Shown: piece by piece, positions 4,919-62,576 of the stretch
Position numbering within the stretch: the stretch's first letter is position 1
Layout of the letters: each line of letters begins with the position of its first letter
Assembly (NCBI RefSeq): GCF_050320075.1
Contig: NZ_CP190018.1
Length of the DNA: 64,000 nt
From: Escherichia coli
GTDB lineage: Bacteria; Pseudomonadota; Gammaproteobacteria; Enterobacterales; Enterobacteriaceae
Strand: one strand, 5' to 3'
Notes under the pieces: model-generated
Told to the model about the DNA's origin: nothing
The model's input: only the letters and a program-made list of their open reading frames with translations
Databases searched by the model: none
Made by a program: the position numbers and the translations under genes

Positions 4919-5668
4919 ATGAATTCCCGACAACAAACAATTCTACAGATGGTCATTGACCAGGGTCAGGTTAGCGTAACCGATCTGGCAAAAGCCACTG
5001 GAGTTTCTGAAGTTACCATTCGCCAGGATCTCAACACCCTCGAAAAACTGAGTTACCTCCGCCGTGCACATGGCTTTGCAGTATCGCTTGATAGTGATGA
5101 CGTCGAAACTCGTATGATGAGCAACTATACGCTGAAGCGTGAACTCGCCGAGTTTGCCGCGTCACTGGTTCAACCGGGCGAAACCATCTTTATCGAAAAT
5201 GGCAGCAGCAATGCCCTGCTCGCCCGGACTCTGGGCGAGCAGAAGAAAAATGTCACTATCATCACGGTCAGCAGCTACATCGCGCATTTGCTGAAAGACG
5301 CGCCTTGTGAAGTTATTTTGCTCGGTGGCGTGTACCAGAAAAATAGCGAAAGTATGGTTGGTCCTTTGACACGCCAGTGCATCCAACAGGTGCATTTCAG
5401 CAAAGCATTTATTGGTATTGATGGCTGGCAACCTGAAACTGGGTTTACCGGTCGCGATATGATGCGTACCGATGTGGTCAATGCCGTGCTGGAAAAAGAG
5501 TGCGAAGCGATAGTCCTGACTGACAGCTCGAAATTTGGTGCTGTACATTCATACTCCATCGGCCCCGTTGAGCGATTCAATCGCGTGATTACCGATTCGA
5601 AAATACGCGCCAGCGATCTGATGCATCTTGAGCACAGTAAACTCACCGTTCACGTCGTTGACATTTAA
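4919..5668 (+). CDS. yciT: DeoR-family transcriptional regulator (DeoT), 249 aa
   Basis: 249 aa ORF with an N-terminal HTH ([21 protein letters not shown]) and a sugar-phosphate-binding DeoR C-terminal domain. Confidence 0.85.
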
Positions 5669-5936
5669 CCATTTCCCTTCTCTACGGATGATTTGCTGTT
5701 TTGCAAATCATCCGCTCTAAGATGATTCCTGGTTGATAATTAAGACTATTTACCTGTTATTAACACTCTCAAGATATAAAATTATTATCAGCGATATAAC
5801 AGGAAGTCATTATCACCTGCGTGATATAACCCTGCGCGCGAGCGGATTTCACGGAATAATTTCACCAGGCTTATTCTTAGCTATTATAGTTATAGTGAGC
5901 TTACTTCCGTGAATCATAAATTCAGGAGAGAGTATT

Positions 5937-6155
5937 ATGTTTGTAACGAGCAAAAAAATGACCGCGGCTGTTCTGGCAATTACCCTGGCAATGTCTCTGA
6001 GTGCCTGTTCTAACTGGTCTAAACGAGACCGTAACACCGCAATTGGCGCGGGTGCAGGTGCATTAGGCGGTGCAGTACTGACCGATGGCAGTACGCTGGG
6101 TACATTAGGTGGTGCTGCCGTCGGTGGTGTTATTGGTCACCAGGTCGGTAAATAA
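5937..6155 (+). CDS. osmB: Osmotically inducible lipoprotein B, 72 aa
   Basis: Lipoprotein signal peptide with lipobox LSAC, followed by a Gly-rich body (GAGAGALGGAV...); length 72 aa. Confidence 0.9.
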   Translation: MFVTSKKMTAAVLAITLAMSLSACSNWSKRDRNTAIGAGAGALGGAVLTDGSTLGTLGGAAVGGVIGHQVGK

Positions 6156-6280
6156 TCGTAAATAAATGTCGATTATCGACTCGCAATTATAATACGCTTG
6201 ATTCTGTTCAGTACGAAATAACTGAATAATACACACAGTAAAATATTCGAAAGCCACGGATATATCCGTGGCTTTTTATG

Positions 6281-6607
6281 TTAACCGCCTGCGAGTTTTA
6301 CCTTCATCCCTTTCGCTTCAAGTAGTGATTTTAATAAATCACGCTTATCGCCCTGGATTTCAATAACTCCATCTTTAACTGCTCCGCCGCAGCCGCATTT
6401 TTTCTTCAGTTCCGCTGCAAGTTTTGTCAGTTCGGCATCATCGAGATCGACACCGGTAATCAAGCAAACGCCCTTACCTTTACGTCCACTGGTCTGACGC
6501 TGAATACGCACCACACCGTCGCCTTTAGGGCGTACAGGGGCCGCTTTTGGCTCATCAATACGTCCGGTTTCCGTTGAGTAGACCAGACGGCTGTTGGAAT
6601 CACTCAT
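6281..6607 (-). CDS. yciH: SUI1/eIF1-like translation factor YciH, 108 aa (109 aa if the upstream ATG at 6610 is used)
   Basis: ORF 6281..6610; SDSNSRLVYSTETGR matches YciH. Two adjacent ATG codons; the first overlaps the pyrF stop as ATGA. Confidence 0.85.
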   Translation of the reverse strand: MSDSNSRLVYSTETGRIDEPKAAPVRPKGDGVVRIQRQTSGRKGKGVCLITGVDLDDAELTKLAAELKKKCGCGGAVKDGVIEIQGDKRDLLKSLLEAKGMKVKLAGG

Positions 6608-7344
6608 CATGCACTCCGCTGTAAAGAGGCGTTGATCGCTTTCAGCGTCTGCGCTGGATCTACCGATTGCGTTATCGGGCGACCAATCACCATATAATCA
6701 ACACCAGCCGCCGACGCCTGTTCTGGCGTCATAATGCGGCGCTGGTCACCAGCTTCACTCCCCTGCGGACGAATGCCCGGCGTAACCAGTTTGAACTCCT
6801 GACCAAATACCTGTTTAAAGCGCGCAGCTTCCTGAGCAGAACACACCACACCATCAAGGCCACATTTTTGCGTCAGTGCTGCCAGACGTTCTGCATAATC
6901 TGCAGGTGACAGTGTCACGCCAAGATCGGCCAGGTCGCTGGCTTCCATGCTGGTCAATACTGTCACAGCAATCAAAAGCGGTGCATCTTTGCCAAACGGC
7001 ACCAGTGCCTCACGCGCTGCGGTCATCATACGCGCCCCACCGGAGGCATGAACATTCACCATCCACACGCCTAAGTCAGCTGCAGCAGCGACAGCGTGCG
7101 CTGCAGTGTTGGGAATATCGTGAAATTTCAGGTCGAGGAAGATATCAAAACCCCGTTGTTGAAGTTCGCGTACAAATTGAGGTCCAAACAGCGTAAACAT
7201 CTCTTTGCCGACTTTCAGACGACAATCGCGTGGGTCGATCTTGTCGACAAAGGCCAGCGCGTCATCACGATTATGATAATCAAGGGCAACAACCACAGGA
7301 GAATTCGTAACAGCGCGGGAAGAAGATGAAGCAGTTAACGTCAT
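6607..7344 (-). CDS. pyrF: Orotidine-5'-phosphate decarboxylase, 245 aa
   Basis: ORF trimmed to [25 protein letters not shown]; OMP decarboxylase family; length 245 aa. Confidence 0.9.
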
Positions 7345-7535
7345 GACCAGACCTTCTTGATGATGGGCACCGGAAGTGGCGCGAAACAGGTAAACGGCGA
7401 GCATTCTACCCGTGGAAATAAAAAATTAACAGTTGCGATTTCTCCCCTGGCAGGCTTTTCTGCGCCTGAGTTACCGGAGCACAATGGAACATCAACAATT
7501 AGTATGTTGTAACTAAAGTCGGATTTTTTTAAAAA

Positions 7536-8705
7536 TTACAGGCCATCAAGACCGCGAATCGGTTTAATGGTTGACCAGGCCCGACAAGACGGACAATGCC
7601 AGTAGAGAGCGTATGCGGTAAAACCACATTTCTGGCAGCGATAACGAGGCTTACTACGCACCTTCTCGCCAACCATGTCACGCAGCACCATCAGACTCTC
7701 TTTGGCACGCCCTTCTTCCGCTTCATTTAAGTGGTAATCCATAAGCTTATGGAACACACGCATGGTCGGATGACGCTGAAGCTGACGCGTAATATAGACC
7801 TGTGCGGCCTCACTACCGTCGCGCGCTTCGATGATGTCCGCAAGCATCAGTTCAGCATCGGCACCGGTGTTCTCTTCCACCGCGCGCTGCAGGAACTCTG
7901 CCCATTCGGCAGTTTTACCCAACTGCTGGTAGCAGGTTTGCAGCATTTCCAGCGTTTCGCTGACCAGTTCTCTGTCCTGGGATATCACGCGTTGCAGACT
8001 TTCGACGGCTTTGGCGTATTCTCCTTTCGCCATAAATACGCGTCCCATCATGATGGATACGCGGGCGCTGTTTTTATCTGCCGCCGCACCTTTTTTTAAC
8101 AAGGCCATGGCACGATCGAGATCGTCGCTGGCCATATGCTGCAGGGCTAACTCACAGTAGAAATGGGCAATTTCGACGCGCTGTTTATCTTTACCCAGCT
8201 TCACCAGGCGTTCGGCAACATCAATTGCTTTCTGCCACTCGCTGGTAGCCTGGTAGATTTGTAGCAACTGTTGCAGCGCGCCAATGCGGAAGTCAGTTTC
8301 ATCGGTCAGCTGATTGAACATGTCTTCCGCGCGGTCGTATAACCCGGCGGCCATGTAATCACGCCCCAGTTGTTGAATCGCCAACAGACGCTGTTCATAG
8401 GTCAGCGAGGCGCTTTCCATTAGGGTCTGATGGATGCGAATAGCGCGATCAACTTCGCCACGCGAACGGAACAGGTTTCCGAGCGTAAGGTGGGCTTCAA
8501 CGGTACCCGTATCCTCTTTAAGCATATCGAGAAACAGGTCTACCGCTTTATCCTGTTGATTACTAAGCAGAAAGTTAACCCCCGCTACGTAATCACGCGA
8601 CAAGCGGTTGGCTTCATCTTGCTTGTTTTGTTGCGCACTTCTGCGGCCCATATACCAGCCATAGGCAGCGGCTACAGGCAAAAGCAGAAACAACAACTCC
8701 AGCAT
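7536..8705 (-). CDS. lapB: LPS assembly protein LapB (TPR repeats plus C-terminal rubredoxin-like zinc finger), 389 aa
   Basis: 389 aa; N-terminal TM helix, TPR-like repeats, C-terminal CQKCGFTAYALYWHCPSC metal-binding motif. Confidence 0.9.
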   Translation of the reverse strand: MLELLFLLLPVAAAYGWYMGRRSAQQNKQDEANRLSRDYVAGVNFLLSNQQDKAVDLFLDMLKEDTGTVEAHLTLGNLFRSRGEVDRAIRIHQTLMESASLTYEQRLLAIQQLGRDYMAAGLYDRAEDMFNQLTDETDFRIGALQQLLQIYQATSEWQKAIDVAERLVKLGKDKQRVEIAHFYCELALQHMASDDLDRAMALLKKGAAADKNSARVSIMMGRVFMAKGEYAKAVESLQRVISQDRELVSETLEMLQTCYQQLGKTAEWAEFLQRAVEENTGADAELMLADIIEARDGSEAAQVYITRQLQRHPTMRVFHKLMDYHLNEAEEGRAKESLMVLRDMVGEKVRSKPRYRCQKCGFTAYALYWHCPSCRAWSTIKPIRGLDGL

Positions 8706-20150: not shown

Positions 20151-20909
20151 ATGCATTACCAGCCAAAACAAGATTTACTCAATGATCGCATTATCCTAGT
20201 GACGGGAGCCAGCGATGGTATTGGCCGTGAAGCCGCGATGACGTATGCACGCTATGGTGCGACAGTGATTCTGTTGGGCCGTAATGAAGAAAAATTACGT
20301 CAGGTAGCCAGCCACATAAACGAAGAAACTGGACGTCAGCCACAGTGGTTTATTCTCGATTTGCTGACCTGCACGTCCGAAGATTGCCAACAACTGGCAC
20401 AGCGCATTGCCGTTAATTATCCGCGTCTGGATGGTGTTTTGCATAATGCCGGATTGCTCGGCGATGTTTGCCCAATGAGCGAACAAAATCCGCAGGTCTG
20501 GCAGGACGTCATGCAGGTCAACGTTAATGCCACCTTTATGCTCACCCAGGCACTGCTTCCTTTATTACTCAAATCGGACGCCGGTTCACTGGTCTTTACT
20601 TCATCAAGCGTTGGACGTCAGGGACGAGCCAACTGGGGCGCATATGCAGCGTCGAAATTTGCCACCGAAGGGATGATGCAGGTACTGGCCGATGAATATC
20701 AGCAGCGCCTGCGCGTCAACTGCATTAACCCAGGCGGTACGCGCACCGCAATGCGGGCCAGCGCCTTCCCGACCGAAGATCCACAGAAACTTAAAACACC
20801 CGCTGATATCATGCCGCTCTACCTCTGGCTGATGGGCGATGACAGCCGCCGTAAAACCGGCATGACCTTTGACGCCCAACCGGGCCGTAAACCAGGAATT
20901 TCCCAATGA
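20151..20909 (+). CDS. yciK: Short-chain dehydrogenase/reductase family oxidoreductase YciK, 252 aa
   Basis: Rossmann motif TGASDGIGREAA and SDR catalytic region; 252 aa. Confidence 0.85.
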   Translation: MHYQPKQDLLNDRIILVTGASDGIGREAAMTYARYGATVILLGRNEEKLRQVASHINEETGRQPQWFILDLLTCTSEDCQQLAQRIAVNYPRLDGVLHNAGLLGDVCPMSEQNPQVWQDVMQVNVNATFMLTQALLPLLLKSDAGSLVFTSSSVGRQGRANWGAYAASKFATEGMMQVLADEYQQRLRVNCINPGGTRTAMRASAFPTEDPQKLKTPADIMPLYLWLMGDDSRRKTGMTFDAQPGRKPGISQ

Positions 20910-21536: not shown

Positions 21537-21592
21537 CGGTAATGGTGCCAACTTACTGATTTAGTGTATGATGGTGTTTTTGAGGTGCTCCC

Positions 21593-21868
21593 GTGGCTTC
21601 CATCTCCATCAGTTGTCCCTCCTGCTCAGCTACTGAAGGCGTGGTGCGTAACGGTAAAAGTACTGCCGGACATCAGCGCTATCTCTGCTCTCACTGCCGT
21701 AAAACATGGCAACTGCAGTTCACTTACACCGCTTCTCAACCCGGTACACACCAGAAAATCATTGATATGGCCATGAATGGTGTTGGATGCCGGGCAACCG
21801 CCCGCATTATGGGCGTTGGCCTCAACACGATTTTACGTCACTTAAAAAACTCAGGCCGCAGTCGGTAA
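21593..21868 (+). CDS. insA: IS1 InsA (transposition repressor / N-terminal part of the transposase), 91 aa
   Basis: [46 protein letters not shown] with a zinc-finger motif; canonical InsA. Confidence 0.9.
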
Positions 21869-22290
21869 CCTCGCGCATACAGCCGGGCAGTGATGTGATT
21901 GTCTGCGCTGAAATGGACGAACAGTGGGGCTACGTCGGTGCTAAATCACGTCAGCGCTGGCTGTTTTACGCGTATGACAGGATACGGAGGACGGTTGTGG
22001 CGCACGTCTTCGGTGAACGCACTCTGGCCACACTGGAGCGTCTTCTGAGCCTGCTGTCGGCCTTTGAGGTCGTGGTATGGATGACGGATGGCTGGCCGCT
22101 GTATGAATCCCGCCTGAAGGGAAAGCTGCACGTAATCAGCAAGCGTTACACTCAGCGCATTGAGCGACATAACCTGAATCTGAGACAACATCTGGCAAGG
22201 CTGGGACGGAAGTCACTGTCGTTCTCAAAATCGGTGGAGCTGCATGACAAAGTCATCGGGCATTATCTGAACATAAAACACTATCAGTAA
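21787..22290 (+). CDS. insB: IS1 InsB frame; expressed as the InsAB' transposase by -1 frameshifting at A6C (21844..21850)
   Basis: ORF overlapping the insA 3' end in the -1 frame; contains [21 protein letters not shown] typical of InsB. Confidence 0.85.
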
Positions 22291-25367: not shown

Positions 25368-25988
25368 TTATAAGAAAGGCTTCACATCACCTACGCCTTC
25401 ACGCACCACGACCGGCGTATCATCAGTAAGATCAATAACCGTTGTTGGTTTCTGCCCGAGATAGCCGCCGTGAATAATCAAATCTACCTGTTTTTCCAGA
25501 CGGTCTTTAATTTCTTCCGGATCGGATTCGGTAAATTCGCTACCTGGCAGCATCAGTGATGTGGAAAGCATCGGTTCGCCCAATGCTTCAAGCAGCGCCT
25601 GCGCAATCGGGTTAGAAGGCACACGCATACCGATGGTTTTGCGTTTTTCCTGCAACAGACGGCGTGGCACCTCCTTCGTCCCTTTCAGGATGAAGGTGTA
25701 GTTGCCCGGCGTGTTGTTTTTCATTAAACGAAACGCAACGTTATCCACGAATGAATAGGTCGAGAGCTCAGAAAGATCGCGACACATCAGGGTAAAGTTG
25801 TGACCGTCCGGCAGCTGGCGAATACGACAAATACGCTCCATGGCGTTTTTATCTTCAATTTTACAGCCGAGCGCATAGCCGGAATCAGTTGGATAAACAA
25901 TCACCCCGCCTTTACGCACGATCTCCACCGCCTGGTTGATCAGACGTTGCTGCGGGTTATCAGGATGAATATAAAAAAACTGGCTCAT
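25368..25988 (-). CDS. yciO: YrdC/Sua5-family protein YciO, 206 aa
   Basis: ORF 25368..26024 trimmed to MSQFFYIHPDNPQQRLINQAVEIVRKGGVIVYPTDSGYALGC (YrdC fold signature). Confidence 0.85.
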   Translation of the reverse strand: MSQFFYIHPDNPQQRLINQAVEIVRKGGVIVYPTDSGYALGCKIEDKNAMERICRIRQLPDGHNFTLMCRDLSELSTYSFVDNVAFRLMKNNTPGNYTFILKGTKEVPRRLLQEKRKTIGMRVPSNPIAQALLEALGEPMLSTSLMLPGSEFTESDPEEIKDRLEKQVDLIIHGGYLGQKPTTVIDLTDDTPVVVREGVGDVKPFL

Positions 25989-27139: not shown

Positions 27140-28702
27140 ATGCAAACACAAAAACCGACTCTCGAACTGCTAACCTGCGAAGGCACTTATCGCGACAACC
27201 CGACTGCGCTTTTTCACCAGTTGTGTGGGAATCGTCCAGCAACGCTGCTGCTGGAATCCGCAGATATCGACAGCAAAGATGATTTAAAAAGCCTGCTGCT
27301 GATAGACAGTGCGCTGCGCATTACAGCATTAGGTGACACTGTCACAATTCAGGCACTTTCTGGCAATGGCGAAGCCCTGCTGGCACTACTGGATAACGCC
27401 CTGCCTGCGGGTGTGGAAAGTGAACAATCACCAAACTGCCGTGTGCTGCGCTTCCCCCCTGTCAGTCCACTGCTGGATGAAGACGCCCGCTTATGCTCCC
27501 TTTCTGTTTTTAACGCTTTCCGTTTATTGCAGAATCTGTTGAATGTACCGAAGGAAGAACGAGAAGCCATGTTCTTCGGCGGCCTGTTCTCTTATGACCT
27601 TGTGGCGGGATTTGAAGATTTACCGCAACTGGCAGCGGAAAATAACTGTCCTGATTTCTGCTTTTATCTCGCAGAAACGCTGATGGTGATTGACCATCAG
27701 AAAAAAAGCACCCGCATTCAGGCCAGCCTGTTTGCTCCGAATGAAGAAGAAAAACAACGTCTCACTGCTCGCCTGAACGATCTTCGCCAGCAGCTGACCG
27801 AAGCCGCGCCACCGCTGCCGGTGGTTTCCGTGCCGCATATGCGTTGTGAATGTAATCAGAGCGATGAAGAGTTCGGTGGCGTAGTGCGTTTGTTGCAAAA
27901 AGCGATTCGCGCTGGAGAAATTTTCCAGGTGGTGCCATCTCGCCGTTTCTCTCTGCCCTGCCCGTCACCGCTGGCGGCCTATTACGTGCTGAAAAAGAGT
28001 AATCCCAGCCCGTACATGTTTTTTATGCAGGATAATGATTTCACCCTGTTTGGCGCGTCGCCGGAAAGTTCGCTCAAGTATGACGCCACCAGCCGCCAGA
28101 TTGAGATCTACCCGATTGCCGGAACACGCCCGCGCGGTCGTCGCGCCGATGGCTCGCTGGACAGAGACCTCGACAGCCGCATCGAACTGGAAATGCGTAC
28201 CGATCATAAAGAGCTTTCTGAACATCTGATGCTGGTGGATCTCGCCCGTAATGATCTGGCACGCATTTGCACCCCCGGCAGCCGCTACGTCGCCGATCTC
28301 ACCAAAGTTGACCGTTACTCTTACGTGATGCACCTGGTCTCCCGCGTGGTCGGTGAGCTGCGCCACGATCTCGACGCCCTGCACGCTTACCGCGCCTGTA
28401 TGAATATGGGGACGTTAAGCGGTGCGCCGAAAGTACGCGCTATGCAGTTAATTGCCGAGGCGGAAGGTCGTCGCCGCGGCAGCTACGGCGGCGCGGTAGG
28501 TTATTTCACCGCGCATGGCGATCTCGACACCTGCATTGTGATCCGCTCGGCGCTGGTGGAAAACGGTATCGCCACCGTGCAAGCCGGTGCTGGCGTGGTA
28601 CTTGATTCTGTTCCGCAGTCGGAAGCCGACGAAACCCGTAATAAAGCCCGCGCTGTACTGCGCGCTATTGCCACCGCGCATCATGCACAGGAGACGTTCT
28701 GA
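27140..28702 (+). CDS. trpE: Anthranilate synthase component I, 520 aa
   Basis: 520 aa chorismate-binding enzyme; first gene after the attenuator. Confidence 0.95.
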
Positions 28703-30297
28703 TGGCTGACATTCTGCTGCTCGATAATATCGACTCTTTTACTTACAACCTGGCAGATCAGTTGCGCAGCAATGGTCATAACGTGGTGATTTACCGCAAC
28801 CATATTCCGGCGCAGACCTTAATTGAACGCCTGGCGACAATGAGCAATCCGGTGCTGATGCTTTCTCCTGGCCCCGGTGTGCCAAGTGAAGCCGGTTGTA
28901 TGCCGGAACTCCTCACCCGCCTGCGCGGCAAGCTGCCAATTATTGGCATTTGCCTCGGTCATCAGGCGATTGTCGAAGCTTATGGGGGGTATGTCGGTCA
29001 AGCGGGCGAAATTCTTCACGGTAAAGCCTCCAGCATTGAACATGACGGTCAGGCGATGTTTGCCGGATTAACAAACCCGCTGCCAGTGGCGCGTTATCAC
29101 TCGCTGGTTGGCAGTAACATTCCGGCCGGTTTAACCATCAACGCCCATTTTAATGGCATGGTGATGGCGGTGCGTCACGATGCAGATCGCGTTTGTGGAT
29201 TCCAGTTCCATCCGGAATCCATTCTTACTACCCAGGGCGCTCGCCTGCTGGAACAAACATTGGCCTGGGCGCAGCAGAAACTGGAACCGACTAACACGCT
29301 GCAACCGATTCTGGAAAAACTGTATCAGGCGCAGACGCTTAGCCAGCAAGAAAGCCACCAGCTGTTTTCAGCGGTGGTGCGTGGCGAGCTGAAGCCAGAA
29401 CAGCTCGCGGCGGCGCTGGTGAGCATGAAAATTCGCGGCGAGCACCCGAACGAAATCGCCGGGGCAGCAACTGCCCTTCTGGAAAATGCTGCGCCATTCC
29501 CGCGCCCGGATTATCTGTTTGCCGATATCGTCGGCACCGGTGGTGACGGCAGCAACAGTATCAATATTTCTACCGCCAGTGCGTTTGTCGCCGCGGCCTG
29601 TGGGCTGAAAGTGGCGAAACACGGCAACCGTAGTGTCTCCAGTAAATCCGGTTCGTCGGATCTGCTGGCGGCATTCGGTATTAATCTTGATATGAACGCC
29701 GATAAATCGCGCCAGGCGCTGGATGAGTTAGGCGTCTGTTTCCTCTTTGCGCCGAAATATCACACCGGATTTCGCCACGCGATGCCGGTTCGCCAGCAAC
29801 TGAAAACCCGCACCCTGTTCAACGTGCTGGGGCCACTGATTAACCCGGCGCATCCTCCGCTGGCGTTAATTGGTGTTTATAGTCCGGAACTGGTGCTACC
29901 GATTGCCGAAACCTTGCGCGTGCTGGGGTATCAACGCGCGGCAGTGGTGCACAGCGGCGGGATGGATGAAGTTTCATTACACGCGCCGACAATCGTTGCC
30001 GAACTGCATGACGGCGAAATTAAGAGCTATCAATTGACCGCTGAAGATTTTGGCCTGACCCCCTACCACCAGGAGCAACTGGCAGGTGGAACACCGGAAG
30101 AAAACCGTGACATTTTAACACGCTTGTTACAAGGTAAAGGCGACGCCGCCCATGAAGCAGCCGTCGCGGCGAATGTCGCCATGTTAATGCGCCTGCATGG
30201 CCATGAAGATCTGCAAGCCAATGCGCAAACTGTTCTTGAGGTACTGCGCAGTGGTTCCGCTTACGACAGAGTCACCGCACTGGCGGCACGAGGGTAA
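28702..30297 (+). CDS. trpD: Anthranilate synthase component II / anthranilate phosphoribosyltransferase (bifunctional TrpGD), 531 aa
   Basis: N-terminal glutamine amidotransferase (GICLGHQ) and C-terminal phosphoribosyltransferase; ATG overlaps the trpE TGA (tgATGg). Confidence 0.95.
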
Positions 30298-31659
30298 ATG
30301 ATGCAAACCGTTTTAGCGAAAATCGTCGCAGACAAGGCGATTTGGGTAGAAACCCGCAAACAGCAGCAACCGCTGGCCAGTTTTCAGAATGAGATTCAGC
30401 CGAGCACGCGACATTTTTATGATGCGCTACAGGGTGCACGCACGGCGTTTATTCTTGAGTGCAAGAAAGCCTCGCCGTCAAAAGGCGTGATCCGTGATGA
30501 TTTCGATCCGGCACGCATTGCCGCCATTTATAAACATTACGCTTCGGCAATTTCGGTGCTGACTGATGAGAAATATTTTCAGGGGAGCTTTGATTTCCTC
30601 CCAATCGTCAGCCAAATCGCCCCGCAGCCGATTTTATGTAAAGACTTCATTATCGACCCTTACCAGATCTATCTGGCGCGCTATTACCAGGCCGATGCCT
30701 GCTTATTAATGCTTTCAGTACTGGATGACGAACAATATCGCCACCTTGCCGCCGTCGCCCACAGTCTGGAGATGGGCGTGCTTACCGAAGTCAGTAATGA
30801 AGAGGAACTGGAGCGCGCCATTGCATTGGGGGCAAAGGTCGTTGGCATCAACAACCGCGATCTACGTGATTTGTCGATTGATCTCAACCGTACCCGCGAG
30901 CTTGCGCCGAAACTGGGGCACAACGTGACGGTAATCAGCGAATCCGGCATCAATACTTACGCTCAGGTGCGCGAGTTAAGCCACTTCGCTAACGGTTTTC
31001 TGATTGGTTCGGCGTTGATGGCCCATGACGATTTGAACGCCGCCGTGCGCCGGGTGTTGCTGGGTGAGAATAAAGTATGTGGCCTGACGCGTGGGCAAGA
31101 TGCTAGAGCCGCTTATGACGCGGGCGCGATTTACGGTGGGTTGATTTTTGTTACAACGTCACCGCGTTGCGTCAACGTTGAACAGGCGCAGGAAGTGATG
31201 GCTGCGGCACCGTTGCAGTATGTTGGCGTGTTCCGCAATCACGATATTGCCGATGTGGTGGACAAAGCTAAGGTGTTATCGCTGGCGGCAGTGCAACTGC
31301 ATGGTAATGAAGATCAGCTGTATATCGATACGCTGCGTGAAGCTCTGCCAGCACACGTTGCCATCTGGAAAGCATTAAGCGTCGGTGAAACCCTGCCCGC
31401 CCGCGAGCTTCAGCACGTTGATAAATATGTTTTAGACAACGGCCAGGGTGGAAGCGGTCAACGTTTCGACTGGTCACTGTTAAACGGTCAATCGCTTGGC
31501 AACGTTCTGCTGGCGGGGGGCTTAGGCGCAGATAACTGCGTGGAAGCGGCACAAACCGGCTGCGCCGGACTTGATTTTAATTCTGCTGTAGAGTCGCAAC
31601 CGGGCATCAAAGACGCACGTCTTTTGGCCTCGGTTTTCCAGACGCTGCGCGCATATTAA
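30298..31659 (+). CDS. trpC: Bifunctional indole-3-glycerol-phosphate synthase / phosphoribosylanthranilate isomerase, 453 aa
   Basis: 453 aa; starts directly after the trpD stop. Confidence 0.95.
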
Positions 31660-31670
31660 GGAAAGGAACA

Positions 31671-32864
31671 ATGACAACATTACTTAACCCGTATTTTGGT
31701 GAGTTTGGCGGCATGTACGTGCCACAAATCCTGATGCCTGCTCTGCGCCAGCTGGAAGAAGCTTTTGTCAGCGCGCAAAAAGATCCTGAATTTCAGGCTC
31801 AGTTCAACGACCTGCTGAAAAACTATGCCGGGCGTCCAACCGCACTCACCAAATGCCAGAACATTACGGCTGGCACTAACACCACGCTGTATCTCAAGCG
31901 CGAAGATTTGCTGCACGGCGGCGCGCATAAAACCAACCAGGTGCTCGGCCAGGCTTTGCTGGCGAAGCGGATGGGTAAAACGGAAATCATCGCCGAAACC
32001 GGAGCCGGTCAGCATGGCGTGGCGTCGGCCCTTGCCAGCGCCCTGCTCGGCCTGAAATGTCGCATTTATATGGGTGCCAAAGACGTCGAGCGCCAGTCGC
32101 CTAACGTTTTTCGTATGCGCTTAATGGGTGCGGAAGTGATCCCGGTGCATAGCGGTTCCGCGACGCTGAAAGATGCCTGTAATGAGGCGCTACGCGACTG
32201 GTCCGGCAGTTATGAAACCGCGCACTATATGCTGGGCACCGCGGCTGGCCCGCATCCTTACCCGACCATTGTGCGTGAGTTTCAGCGGATGATTGGCGAA
32301 GAAACGAAAGCGCAGATTCTGGAAAGAGAAGGTCGCCTGCCGGATGCGGTTATCGCCTGTGTTGGCGGCGGTTCGAATGCCATCGGCATGTTTGCTGATT
32401 TCATCAACGAAACCGACGTCGGCCTGATTGGTGTGGAGCCTGGCGGTCACGGTATCGAAACTGGCGAGCACGGCGCACCGTTAAAACATGGTCGTGTGGG
32501 CATCTATTTCGGTATGAAAGCGCCGATGATGCAAACCGAAGACGGGCAGATTGAAGAATCTTACTCCATCTCCGCCGGACTGGATTTCCCGTCTGTCGGC
32601 CCACAACACGCGTATCTTAACAGCACTGGACGCGCTGATTACGTGTCAATTACCGATGATGAAGCACTGGAAGCCTTCAAAACGCTCTGCCTGCACGAAG
32701 GGATCATCCCGGCGCTGGAGTCCTCCCACGCCCTGGCCCATGCGCTGAAAATGATGCGCGAAACCCCGGAAAAAGAGCAGCTACTGGTGGTTAACCTTTC
32801 CGGTCGCGGCGATAAAGACATCTTCACCGTTCACGATATTTTGAAAGCTCGAGGGGAAATATGA
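31671..32864 (+). CDS. trpB: Tryptophan synthase beta chain, 397 aa
   Basis: 397 aa PLP enzyme; the PLP-lysine context HGGAHKTNQ is present. Confidence 0.95.
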
Positions 32865-33670
32865 TGGAACGCTACGAATCTCTGTTTGCCCAGTTGAAGG
32901 AGCGCAAAGAAGGCGCATTCGTTCCTTTCGTCACGCTCGGTGATCCGGGCATTGAGCAGTCGCTGAAAATTATCGACACGCTAATTGAAGCCGGTGCTGA
33001 CGCGCTGGAGTTAGGTATCCCCTTCTCCGACCCACTGGCGGATGGCCCGACGATTCAAAACGCCACACTGCGTGCCTTTGCGGCAGGTGTGACCCCGGCA
33101 CAGTGCTTTGAGATGCTGGCACTGATTCGCCAGAAGCACCCGACCATTCCCATCGGCCTTTTGATGTATGCCAACCTGGTGTTTAACAAAGGCATTGATG
33201 AGTTTTATGCCCAGTGCGAGAAAGTCGGCGTCGATTCGGTGCTGGTTGCCGATGTGCCAGTGGAAGAGTCCGCGCCCTTCCGCCAGGCCGCGTTGCGTCA
33301 TAATGTCGCACCTATCTTTATTTGCCCGCCGAATGCCGACGATGATTTGCTGCGCCAGATAGCCTCCTACGGTCGTGGATACACCTATTTATTGTCACGT
33401 GCGGGCGTGACCGGCGCAGAAAACCGCGCCGCGTTACCCCTCAATCATCTAGTCACGAAGCTGAAAGAATACAATGCTGCGCCTCCATTGCAGGGCTTTG
33501 GTATTTCCGCCCCGGATCAGGTAAAAGCAGCGATTGATGCAGGAGTTGCGGGCGCGATTTCTGGTTCGGCCATCGTTAAAATCATCGAGCAACATATTAA
33601 TGAGCCAGAGAAAATGCTGGCGGCACTGAAAGCTTTTGTACAACCGATGAAAGCGGCGACGCGCAGCTAA
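32864..33670 (+). CDS. trpA: Tryptophan synthase alpha chain, 268 aa
   Basis: ORF trimmed to [22 protein letters not shown]; ATG overlaps the trpB TGA by 1 nt. Confidence 0.95.
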
Positions 33671-43318: not shown

Positions 43319-44323
43319 TTAAAGCGGATCGACTTTCAGGCAAGAAACGGCGTGTCTGAAACTCCCCTCCAGAACAGGACGTGTTTTGGCGCACTCCGGA
43401 CCGGCAATCGGGCAACGGGTACGGAAAACACAACCGGAAGGCGGGTTGATCGGCGACGGTAATTCCCCTTCCAGTAACTGGATGGTTTTGTTCTTCTCCA
43501 GATCCGGATCAGGTATGGGGACTGCCGACATCAATGCCCGGGTGTAAGGATGTAGTGGATTGTGGTAGACCTCATCATAGTTCCCCAGTTCTACCGCATG
43601 GCCGAGATACATCACCAGCACACGATCGGAAATGTGTTTTACCACGGCCAGGTCGTGAGCGATAAAAATTAATGACAATCCCATCTCGCGTTGCAGCTGC
43701 TGGAGCAGGTTGACCACCTGCGCCTGAATTGACACGTCCAGCGCCGACACCGGCTCATCACAGATAATCAGCTTCGGTTCAAGAATAAGAGCACGAGCAA
43801 TCCCGATACGCTGGCACTGCCCACCAGAGAACTCATGCGGATAGCGGTTAATCAGGTTAGGCAATAACCCGACTTTCAGCATCATCGCCTTCACGCGCTC
43901 GCGAACTTCCTGGCGTGACATTTTCGGATGATAAGTACGCAGTGGTTCAGCGATGATCTCGCCGATGGTCATACGCGGGTTAAGCGATGCCAACGGATCC
44001 TGGAAAATCATCTGAATATCACTGCGAACGGCACGCCATTCATCGGGCTTCATGCCCAGCAACTCTTTACCTAACCAGGCAACATGACCGTCGGTCGCCT
44101 TGACCAAACCGATGATGGCGCGAGCAAAGGTGGACTTACCGCATCCCGATTCCCCTACCACACCTAAAGTTTCCCCTTCATACAGGCGAAGAGTGACACC
44201 ATCGACGGCTTTGAGCGTTTTCGGCGGTTGCCAGAACCACTGTTTGCCATCTTTGATTTCAAAGTGCACTTTCAGATCGGCGATTTCAAGGAGGACTTTT
44301 CTTCCTTCAGTTACAGCATTCAT
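43319..44323 (-). CDS. oppF: Oligopeptide ABC transporter ATP-binding protein OppF, 334 aa
   Basis: Walker A GESGCGKST, ABC signature LSGGQ; last gene of the opp cluster. Confidence 0.9.
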   Translation of the reverse strand: MNAVTEGRKVLLEIADLKVHFEIKDGKQWFWQPPKTLKAVDGVTLRLYEGETLGVVGESGCGKSTFARAIIGLVKATDGHVAWLGKELLGMKPDEWRAVRSDIQMIFQDPLASLNPRMTIGEIIAEPLRTYHPKMSRQEVRERVKAMMLKVGLLPNLINRYPHEFSGGQCQRIGIARALILEPKLIICDEPVSALDVSIQAQVVNLLQQLQREMGLSLIFIAHDLAVVKHISDRVLVMYLGHAVELGNYDEVYHNPLHPYTRALMSAVPIPDPDLEKNKTIQLLEGELPSPINPPSGCVFRTRCPIAGPECAKTRPVLEGSFRHAVSCLKVDPL

Positions 44324-61188: not shown

Positions 61189-61866
61189 TTAGTGACGAGC
61201 GCGCACCAGCTGATACTTACGTGTCAGATACTCCACCGGTACGCTCCAGATGTGCACCAGACGTGAGAACGGGAACAGCAAGAATAACGTCATCCCCAGC
61301 ACCAGGTGCAGACGGAAGATAAACGCCACACCATCAAGGTGTTGAGAAGCGCCACCGTGGAAGGTCACTACCGACTGCGCCCAGCCAACCAGTTTCATCA
61401 TCTCGCTACCGTCCATATGCTGGGCGGAGAACGGAATGGTCAGCAAGCCCAGAGCGCACTGGATAACCAGCAGAGACAGGATCAGGATATCCGCTCCGGT
61501 AGTCGTTGCACGCACGCGTGGGCTGAACAGACGACGTTTCAGCAACAGCACGCCGCCAATCAGACACAGCACGCCGCTGGCACCACCAGCAAACATCGCC
61601 ATTTTCTGTTTCACTTCAATCGGCAGCCAGGCTTCATACATCCAGTGCGGCGTCAGCATACCAAAGAAGTGACCGACAAAAATCCCCAGAATACCGATAT
61701 GGAACAGGTTCGACGCCAGGTTCATCCCTTTGCGATCCAGCATCTGGCTGGACGCCGCGCGCCAGGTGTACTGCCCGTAGTCATAACGCAGCCAGCTACC
61801 AATCAGGAAGACCGCCCCGGCTATGTACGGGTAGATATCAAAGAAGAACATATTCAGGAATTGCAT
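61189..61866 (-). CDS. narI: Respiratory nitrate reductase gamma subunit (cytochrome b), 225 aa
   Basis: 225 aa, five TM helices with conserved haem-ligand His residues; N-terminus [35 protein letters not shown]. Confidence 0.9.
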
Positions 61867-62576
61867 TAGTGCTGTCCTCCGGTGGTGATATTCAGATATT
61901 GCGGCGCGACGGCACCGGCAAAGCGACGCTGATGAGCAGTGATTGCTGAATCACCGCAGCCTTTGTCAGCAAAGAATTTAACCTGCTCTTCTTCCCAGAC
62001 AGCATCCAGCGCCTGCGGCGTATCGTCGCGCGCTTCGTCGGCAATTTTTTCCGCCACTTTGTCGCTGTCGATTGCGGTATTCGCCAGTTTCAGCAGCAGA
62101 TCAAACAGCACGGCATAACGGCTTTCACGCTGTTGCAGACGCGCGCAGAGCAATGCCAGAATCGGCGCGATATCTTTCAAACCTTCCACGGCTTCGCTTT
62201 GCGGCAGCTGCGCCAGATACTCCAGATACAGCGGCAAATGGTCGGGCAATTCGCGGCTGTTTAACTGCAAACCGTGCTGCTCGTACTGTGCCAGCAGGTC
62301 CACCATCGCCTGACCGCGATCGCGGGATTCCCCGTGAACGTGTTCAAACAGCAACAGCGACGTGGCGCGACCACGATCGAACAGTTCGCTGTACTGCGCC
62401 TGGGCATCGAGCGGATCCATCGTCGTTAAATCGCGCAGGAAAATGCCCAGCGCATGGGCATCTTCTTTCGACAGATTTTTCGACGCAGCAATTGCCTCAA
62501 ACATCTCTTGTTGATGCTGCCATAAAGCAGCATCCGGATATTCAAGGAGACGCGATACAATCACGAGTTCGATCAT
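61866..62576 (-). CDS. narJ: Nitrate reductase assembly chaperone NarJ, 236 aa
   Basis: 236 aa; stop overlaps the narI start by 1 nt (ATGA-type junction). Confidence 0.9.

Follow-up and report, generated by a model that had tools for sequence, protein, structure and literature searches.

The pyrF-yciH locus and its genomic setting

The stretch of DNA analysed here (the window, 64 kb) is part of an E. coli chromosome, with the order yciW-rnb … pyrF-yciH … trp operon … opp operon … adhE … narI/J/H, an orientation that we take to be reversed relative to the K-12 map. It is collinear with the genome of E. coli YZLc1-3 (NZ_CP123240.1, 2836742-2900741; chicken faeces, China) and differs from it at 6 positions only (261, 3865, 4327, 5344, 32861 and 56825), so that window coordinates correspond 1:1 to the RefSeq annotation of YZLc1-3. 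Over positions 5500-8000, the window has 100% matches in many E. coli genomes. Away from this segment, the interval between cobO (btuR) and rluB holds an IS1 element, recognizable by its left inverted repeat (match at 21538..21560) and its transposase ORFs, which together cover 21538..22290, the transposase with its programmed frameshift occupying 21593..22290. Among complete E. coli genomes, just two, YZLc1-3 and Ec-U3, have the identical insertion, while some other strains, for instance CFSAN061763, carry two hypothetical genes at the same spot, which is thus a variable site.

The features of the locus are as follows.

6607..7344, minus strand: pyrF CDS, orotidine-5'-phosphate decarboxylase, 245 aa (RefSeq of the collinear genome and Pfam)
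6281..6607, minus strand: yciH CDS, SUI1/eIF1-family protein, 108 aa when read from ATG2 (RefSeq, Pfam and a PDB match)
6605..6610, minus strand: ATGATG hexamer at the pyrF/yciH junction, both ATGs in the yciH frame
6610..6608, minus strand: ATG1, forming ATGA with the pyrF TGA, a -4 overlap
6607..6605, minus strand: ATG2, forming TGATG, a -1 overlap; the conserved start
6614..6617, minus strand: Shine-Dalgarno (SD) core GGAG in the pyrF codons Arg-Ser, -10..-7 from ATG2
6250..6275, minus strand: terminator-like hairpin 3' of yciH, with an 11-bp stem of which 6 pairs are GC, followed by a T-rich tail

PyrF scores 238 bits against the Pfam family OMPdecase PF00215 (cutoff 27, E=1e-70) and YciH scores 74.2 bits against SUI1 PF01253 (cutoff 25.5, E=1e-20), and YciH also matches archaeal aIF1/SUI1 structures at 1e-9 to 1e-11. 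Its RefSeq product name, 'stress response translation initiation inhibitor', is an annotation label for a putative function. Read from ATG2, with the N-terminus MSDSNS, residues 1-108 are identical to PDB entry 1D1R, whose title is 'hypothetical 11.4 kD protein YciH in pyrF-osmB intergenic region'. At the junction, minus strand 6619..6605 reads GCGGAGTGCATGATG; pyrF ends in Gln-Arg-Ser-Ala-TGA, with its stop at 6609..6607, and the hexamer ATGATG with this TGA inside, which the first-pass annotation had reported at 6605-6610, is exact in the minus-strand sequence. The two genes, on the same strand, therefore overlap by both of the spacings, -1 and -4, that define stop/start overlaps. The same 81-nt junction occurs without change in 4959 of 5423 E. 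coli records.

Overlapping junctions elsewhere in the window

Six further junctions had been listed by the first-pass annotation together with pyrF/yciH, and all seven are exact -1 or -4 overlaps, both by sequence and by RefSeq annotation. An eighth, narH/narJ, was absent from that list; together with narJ/narI it makes two consecutive overlapping junctions in narH-narJ-narI. The junctions other than pyrF/yciH, and one abutting pair, are given below.

28700..28704, plus strand: trpE/trpD, TGATG, -1
32861..32866, plus strand: trpB/trpA, ATGATG, with the trpB TGA at 32862..32864 and the annotated trpA ATG at 32864..32866, -1
20906..20909, plus strand: yciK/cobO (btuR), ATGA, -4
25985..25988, minus strand: rnm (trpH)/yciO, ATGA, -4
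44320..44323, minus strand: oppD/oppF, ATGA, -4
61864..61868, minus strand: narJ/narI, TAATG, -1
62573..62576, minus strand: narH/narJ, ATGA, -4
30295..30303, plus strand: trpD/trpC, zero spacing, TAAATG, sequence TAAATGATG

Among the 38 co-directional CDS pairs of the window, 4 stand at -1 and 4 at -4, and no other overlap occurs. These 8 pairs compare with about 0.58 expected when the local density of short positive spacings is applied to two arbitrary spacings (Poisson P = 2e-7), in keeping with the enrichment of -1/-4 overlaps known throughout the genomes of bacteria and archaea (PMC6728339, PMC12548453). Taken over all junctions, SD energies lie between -4.3 and -9.5 kcal/mol. Two of the pairs, trpE/trpD and trpB/trpA, have been shown by experiment to be translationally coupled (Oppenheim & Yanofsky; Aksoy et al., both as cited in PMC12548453 and PMC6728339).

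Two observations concern start codons in the trp operon. In trpC, a second in-frame ATG directly follows the annotated start, giving another tandem-ATG start. In trpB, position 32861 carries an apparently private synonymous SNP, C>A at the wobble position of the final sense codon (ATC to ATA, a rare Ile codon), which turns the trpB/trpA junction from ATCTGATGG into ATATGATGG and so produces a second ATGATG, whose additional in-frame ATG (32861..32863) stands at -4 for trpA. The 81-mer around this position has an exact match in 0 of 5,426 complete E. coli genomes, the best match being 98.8%.

The start codon of yciH

The two in-frame ATGs had been put forward as two candidate starts for yciH. 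Both are indeed present, and comparison across species settles the choice in favour of ATG2. We scanned one genome per species with YciH, which yielded 80 Enterobacterales loci, and used the 79 with pyrF upstream for the junction. An ATG homologous to ATG2 occurs in 79/79 of these species and an ATG at the position of ATG1 in only 5/79, its rarity being explained by the pyrF stop, which is TAA in 52/79 species, so that the triplet at this position is ATA, GTA or TTA. Among the 10 species with TGATG, the preceding base is A in 4, G in 3, C in 2 and T in 1, a spread that fits a free wobble position; even in a divergent lineage whose representative is labelled E. coli (L004), the junction reads GCATAATG. 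The GGAG core stands 6 nt ahead of ATG2 and only 3 nt ahead of ATG1. RefSeq likewise places the start at ATG2, and among the protein matches listed the 108-aa form accounts for the big clusters, with 1709 and 1040 members, while 109-aa calls form single-member clusters. By this comparative evidence, yciH starts at ATG2 and encodes a predicted 108-aa protein, and ATG1 is a by-product of the final pyrF codon, GCA, before TGA.

It is unlikely, in our judgement, that E. coli uses both ATGs and makes YciH in two proteoforms, one beginning MMSDS... (-4 ATG) and the other (M)SDS... (-1 ATG). Such a dual start would be in keeping with the fixation of ATG1 in E. coli, where the junction is so largely invariant, with the choice of the 109-aa form by some gene callers and with the -4 spacing being the commonest coupling geometry (PMC12548453). 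On the other hand, the near-absence of ATG1 from other species, the wobble-like behaviour of its preceding base and its short distance from GGAG all speak against it, as does the absence of yciH from the re-annotated or dual starts in the TetRP tables examined. Starts 3 nt apart are often inseparable by start-site profiling, which leaves room for a second proteoform. In the TetRP study, the signal one codon past the start nearly equals the signal at the start itself, and ribosome profiling, which the first-pass annotation had recommended for deciding between the two ATGs, is thus unlikely to separate them. When the supplementary tables of TRAINSPOTTER, the Salmonella riboproteogenomics study and TetRP were examined for start-site or N-terminus evidence, no yciH entry was found in them.

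Conservation of spacing and of the intragenic Shine-Dalgarno sequence

Directly upstream of yciH lies pyrF in 79/80 Enterobacterales species. The sole locus without it (L082) comes from a MAG labelled Neisseriaceae, whose YciH is 80% identical to that of E. coli; its contig is short (5.4 kb), and mis-binning or horizontal transfer is possible. In the 79 species, the spacing from pyrF to yciH always falls within -11..+12 nt and takes 11 different values, distributed as follows.

-1 nt: 39 species
-4 nt: 12 species
0 nt: 7 species
-8 nt: 3 species
-11 nt: 3 species
+2 to +12 nt: 15 species

In the same loci, the gap from lapB to pyrF runs from 32 to 1243 nt (median 188). A pyrF-yciH gap that never exceeds 12 nt, next to a 40-fold variation in the neighbouring gap, suggests selection for proximity and not merely for co-transcription.

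The second conserved element is the SD sequence, whose duplex with the anti-SD has -6.1 kcal/mol in E. coli. Across the species, positions -10..-5 from the yciH start hold a conserved purine-rich SD, with G at -9 in 68/79 and at -8 in 61/79 species, while the PyrF C-terminal residues encoded over it vary (…LQRSA, …LKRGA, …LKKDA, …LGMEA and others). As a control, we resampled the last seven pyrF codons synonymously in the 58 loci with spacing -4..0, and the best anti-SD duplex of the natural sequences averaged -8.7 kcal/mol as against -4.6 kcal/mol in these synonymous controls (Wilcoxon p=1e-10). The downstream SD thus lies inside the upstream coding region at a functional spacing, and the comparison with synonymous controls shows it to be under selection. 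Together, the tight spacing and an SD stronger than in the controls indicate that proximity and the intragenic SD are both maintained.

Transcription of pyrF and yciH

The hairpin at 6250..6275 is common to yciH and the convergent osmB and would mark the end of the pyrF-yciH unit. In a strict-consensus scan, by which a weak internal promoter would be missed, no sigma-70-like promoter was found in 5900-7700. Two papers of 1987, by Turnbough et al. (J Biol Chem) and Theisen et al. (Eur J Biochem), are said to have described a pyrF-orfF (yciH) operon in E. coli K-12 and Salmonella, reportedly with an 11.4-kDa ORF after pyrF in the same transcription unit and with the overlapping junction already described. 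The title of PDB 1D1R agrees with an 11.4-kDa ORF after pyrF. Blocking pyrF with dCas9 reduced YciH protein ~3-fold in each of two independent backgrounds (2.2e7 to 6.9e6; 2.07e7 to 7.1e6; PMC7818426). This drop fits a single operon, and the residual YciH would represent carry-over or independent expression.

Coupling of yciH translation to pyrF and alternative explanations

The reading that we prefer, with a probability of about 0.72, is that pyrF and yciH form a two-gene operon in which yciH starts at ATG2 with an intragenic SD, and in which its initiation is most likely promoted by translation of pyrF. The operon would be transcribed on the minus strand from upstream of pyrF and would end at the hairpin after yciH. 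Translation of yciH would start at 6607..6605, where the start codon shares its A with the end of the pyrF stop codon (UGAUG), and would use the GGAG at -10..-7 within the last pyrF codons. Ribosomes finishing pyrF would thus be released within 1 nt of the yciH start, and it is this release next to ATG2 that makes promotion of yciH initiation by pyrF translation the most likely outcome. The arrangement would then be an ordinary case of the -1/-4 'spatial coupling' common among bacterial operons. An architecture with close spacing throughout 79 species and a conserved SD fits coupling, and, by analogy with other overlapping pairs, it is plausible that translation of yciH depends on that of pyrF; a literature search found no published experiment on coupling at pyrF/yciH itself. 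The route, we infer, would be either re-initiation by the terminating ribosome or local unfolding of the mRNA.

Experiments on other gene pairs bear on this reading from both sides. Coupling tolerates spacings of approximately -4..+25 nt and decays with longer overlaps (PMC12548453), and 4/5 overlapping E. coli pairs tested were coupled (PMC6728339), which, like the limit of 12 nt on the pyrF-yciH spacing beside the 40-fold variation upstream of pyrF, tells against the serious rival to coupling, namely independent de novo initiation. According to this rival, yciH is co-transcribed with pyrF, free 30S subunits start de novo at its own SD, and the overlap is cheap packing that evolves easily and has no coupling function. 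We hold it to be possible though rather doubtful, and several lines of evidence favour it. The yciH SD is conserved and strong, and a conserved RNA structure that would occlude it was not found at the junction. The bioB/bioF pair overlaps and yet initiates de novo (PMC6728339), so that overlap alone is no proof of coupling. Upon RRF depletion, downstream/upstream ribosome-density ratios were unchanged genome-wide, overlapping pairs included, which argues against re-initiation as a general mechanism, and the same study gives a coupling factor of only 1.7 for trpB-trpA in reporters, so that coupling effects can be small. The abundance of -4 overlaps has been ascribed in a review to their ease of evolution (PMC12548453), and the junction state of pyrF/yciH, with its 11 spacing classes, shifts often between genera. 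As for the promoter and ribosome-binding site of its own that the first-pass annotation had named as the finding that would speak against coupling, yciH has the binding site, which is conserved, and by strict consensus shows no sigma-70-like promoter within 5900-7700. The binding site does not discriminate between the two readings, because removal of the SD also cut re-initiation substantially in 4/5 E. coli pairs tested (PMC6728339).

Coupling by RNA unfolding, in which the SD (GGAG) would be paired with yciH codons 3-4 (AUUCC) and opened only by the ribosome ending pyrF, is in our view very unlikely. Local structures of this kind have been proposed by Huber et al. (PMC6728339), and the E. 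coli sequence does yield a predicted hairpin, GGAGUGCAUGAUGAGUGAUUCC, of -5.0 kcal/mol, an unpaired probability of 0.14 for the SD and a z-score of -2.5 for the 151-nt fold. However, the ±40-nt minimum free energy is no better than that of shuffled sequences (z = -0.5), the pairing partner of the SD shifts with the length folded, and predicted accessibility over the 79 species is average, at 0.43 for the SD zone and 0.52 for the start as against 0.46 overall. On the strength of this z-score and the average accessibility, a conserved occluding structure at pyrF/yciH was rejected, and a conserved 'unfolding' switch is not supported by these folding predictions.

Phylogenetic reach of the pyrF-SUI1 linkage

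The first-pass annotation had singled out pyrF/yciH as the most notable junction, on the ground that it joins a nucleotide biosynthesis enzyme to an eIF1-like translation factor. As the best 120 protein matches to YciH are all near-identical Enterobacterales proteins, distant taxa were reached through a search of representatives, and 12 distant homologues of 46-61% identity were traced to their contigs. In only 2/12 of these contexts does pyrF lie upstream of the SUI1 gene, once as lapA-lapB-pyrF-yciH at -4 and once as tmk-holB-pyrF-yciH at -14, which weakens the claim to special status. In 3/12, there is a 4-nt overlap of the SUI1 gene with an unrelated gene upstream (for a zinc alcohol dehydrogenase, a BMFP-family protein and a DsbA-family protein), and in a further 3/12 it is first in line and overlaps the gene that follows (RuvX, -1; S4/Hsp15-like, -1; peptidase S9, -4); these loci with overlaps to neighbours other than pyrF, which come from unrelated lineages, are L088, L090, L092, L093, L095 and L096. 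The remaining 4/12 stand alone or lie on contigs too short for a judgement. Judged by gene order, then, the pyrF-SUI1 linkage is a lineage-specific synteny and not a deep functional association.

These contexts also raise a much more speculative idea, which we regard as highly improbable, that stop/start linkage of SUI1 genes to any neighbour recurs and makes YciH synthesis report on terminating or re-initiating ribosomes; if true, YciH output in Enterobacterales would also be tied to translation of a pyrimidine-pathway enzyme. Since >30% of E. coli gene pairs overlap, as stated in the RRF-depletion study, and every gene has two sides, the frequency of SUI1 overlaps is not clearly above background. 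The proposition that SUI1 genes are unusually often overlapped was therefore set aside, the frequency being indistinguishable from background with 12 samples.

Significance and comparison with known systems

The overlaps themselves are already known: they are textbook operon layout, each annotated in RefSeq, and the window happens to contain, in trpE/trpD and trpB/trpA, the historical, founding examples of translational coupling. What the present analysis adds is the firm placement, by comparison of species, of the yciH start at ATG2, the evidence for selection on the SD and on spacing, and the limited phylogenetic reach of pyrF-yciH. Given a pyrF-SUI1 linkage that is restricted to a lineage, no ancient functional tie of nucleotide synthesis to translation initiation should be read from it, and the findings have little importance beyond annotation hygiene.

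With the pyrF-orfF operon of 1987, the window shares the locus itself, as a strain variant with an identical junction. With trpE/trpD and trpB/trpA, pyrF/yciH shares a -1 overlap (UGAUG), an SD in the last codons of the upstream gene and location of both genes on the same strand and, probably, in the same operon. The differences are that coupling of the trp pairs has been demonstrated by experiment whereas pyrF/yciH is known here from its sequence layout, and that the products of the trp pairs are subunits of one enzyme complex, while no physical or pathway relation is known between PyrF and YciH. More broadly, all eight junctions fall into the genome-wide class of ATGA or TGATG/TAATG overlaps (Huber et al. 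2019, PMC6728339; review PMC12548453), with which pyrF/yciH has in common the geometry, an intragenic SD of the sort usually required and the same short range of tolerated spacings. In no essential respect does pyrF/yciH depart from this class; it happens to carry the -1 and the -4 geometry at once, because the codon before its TGA ends in A.
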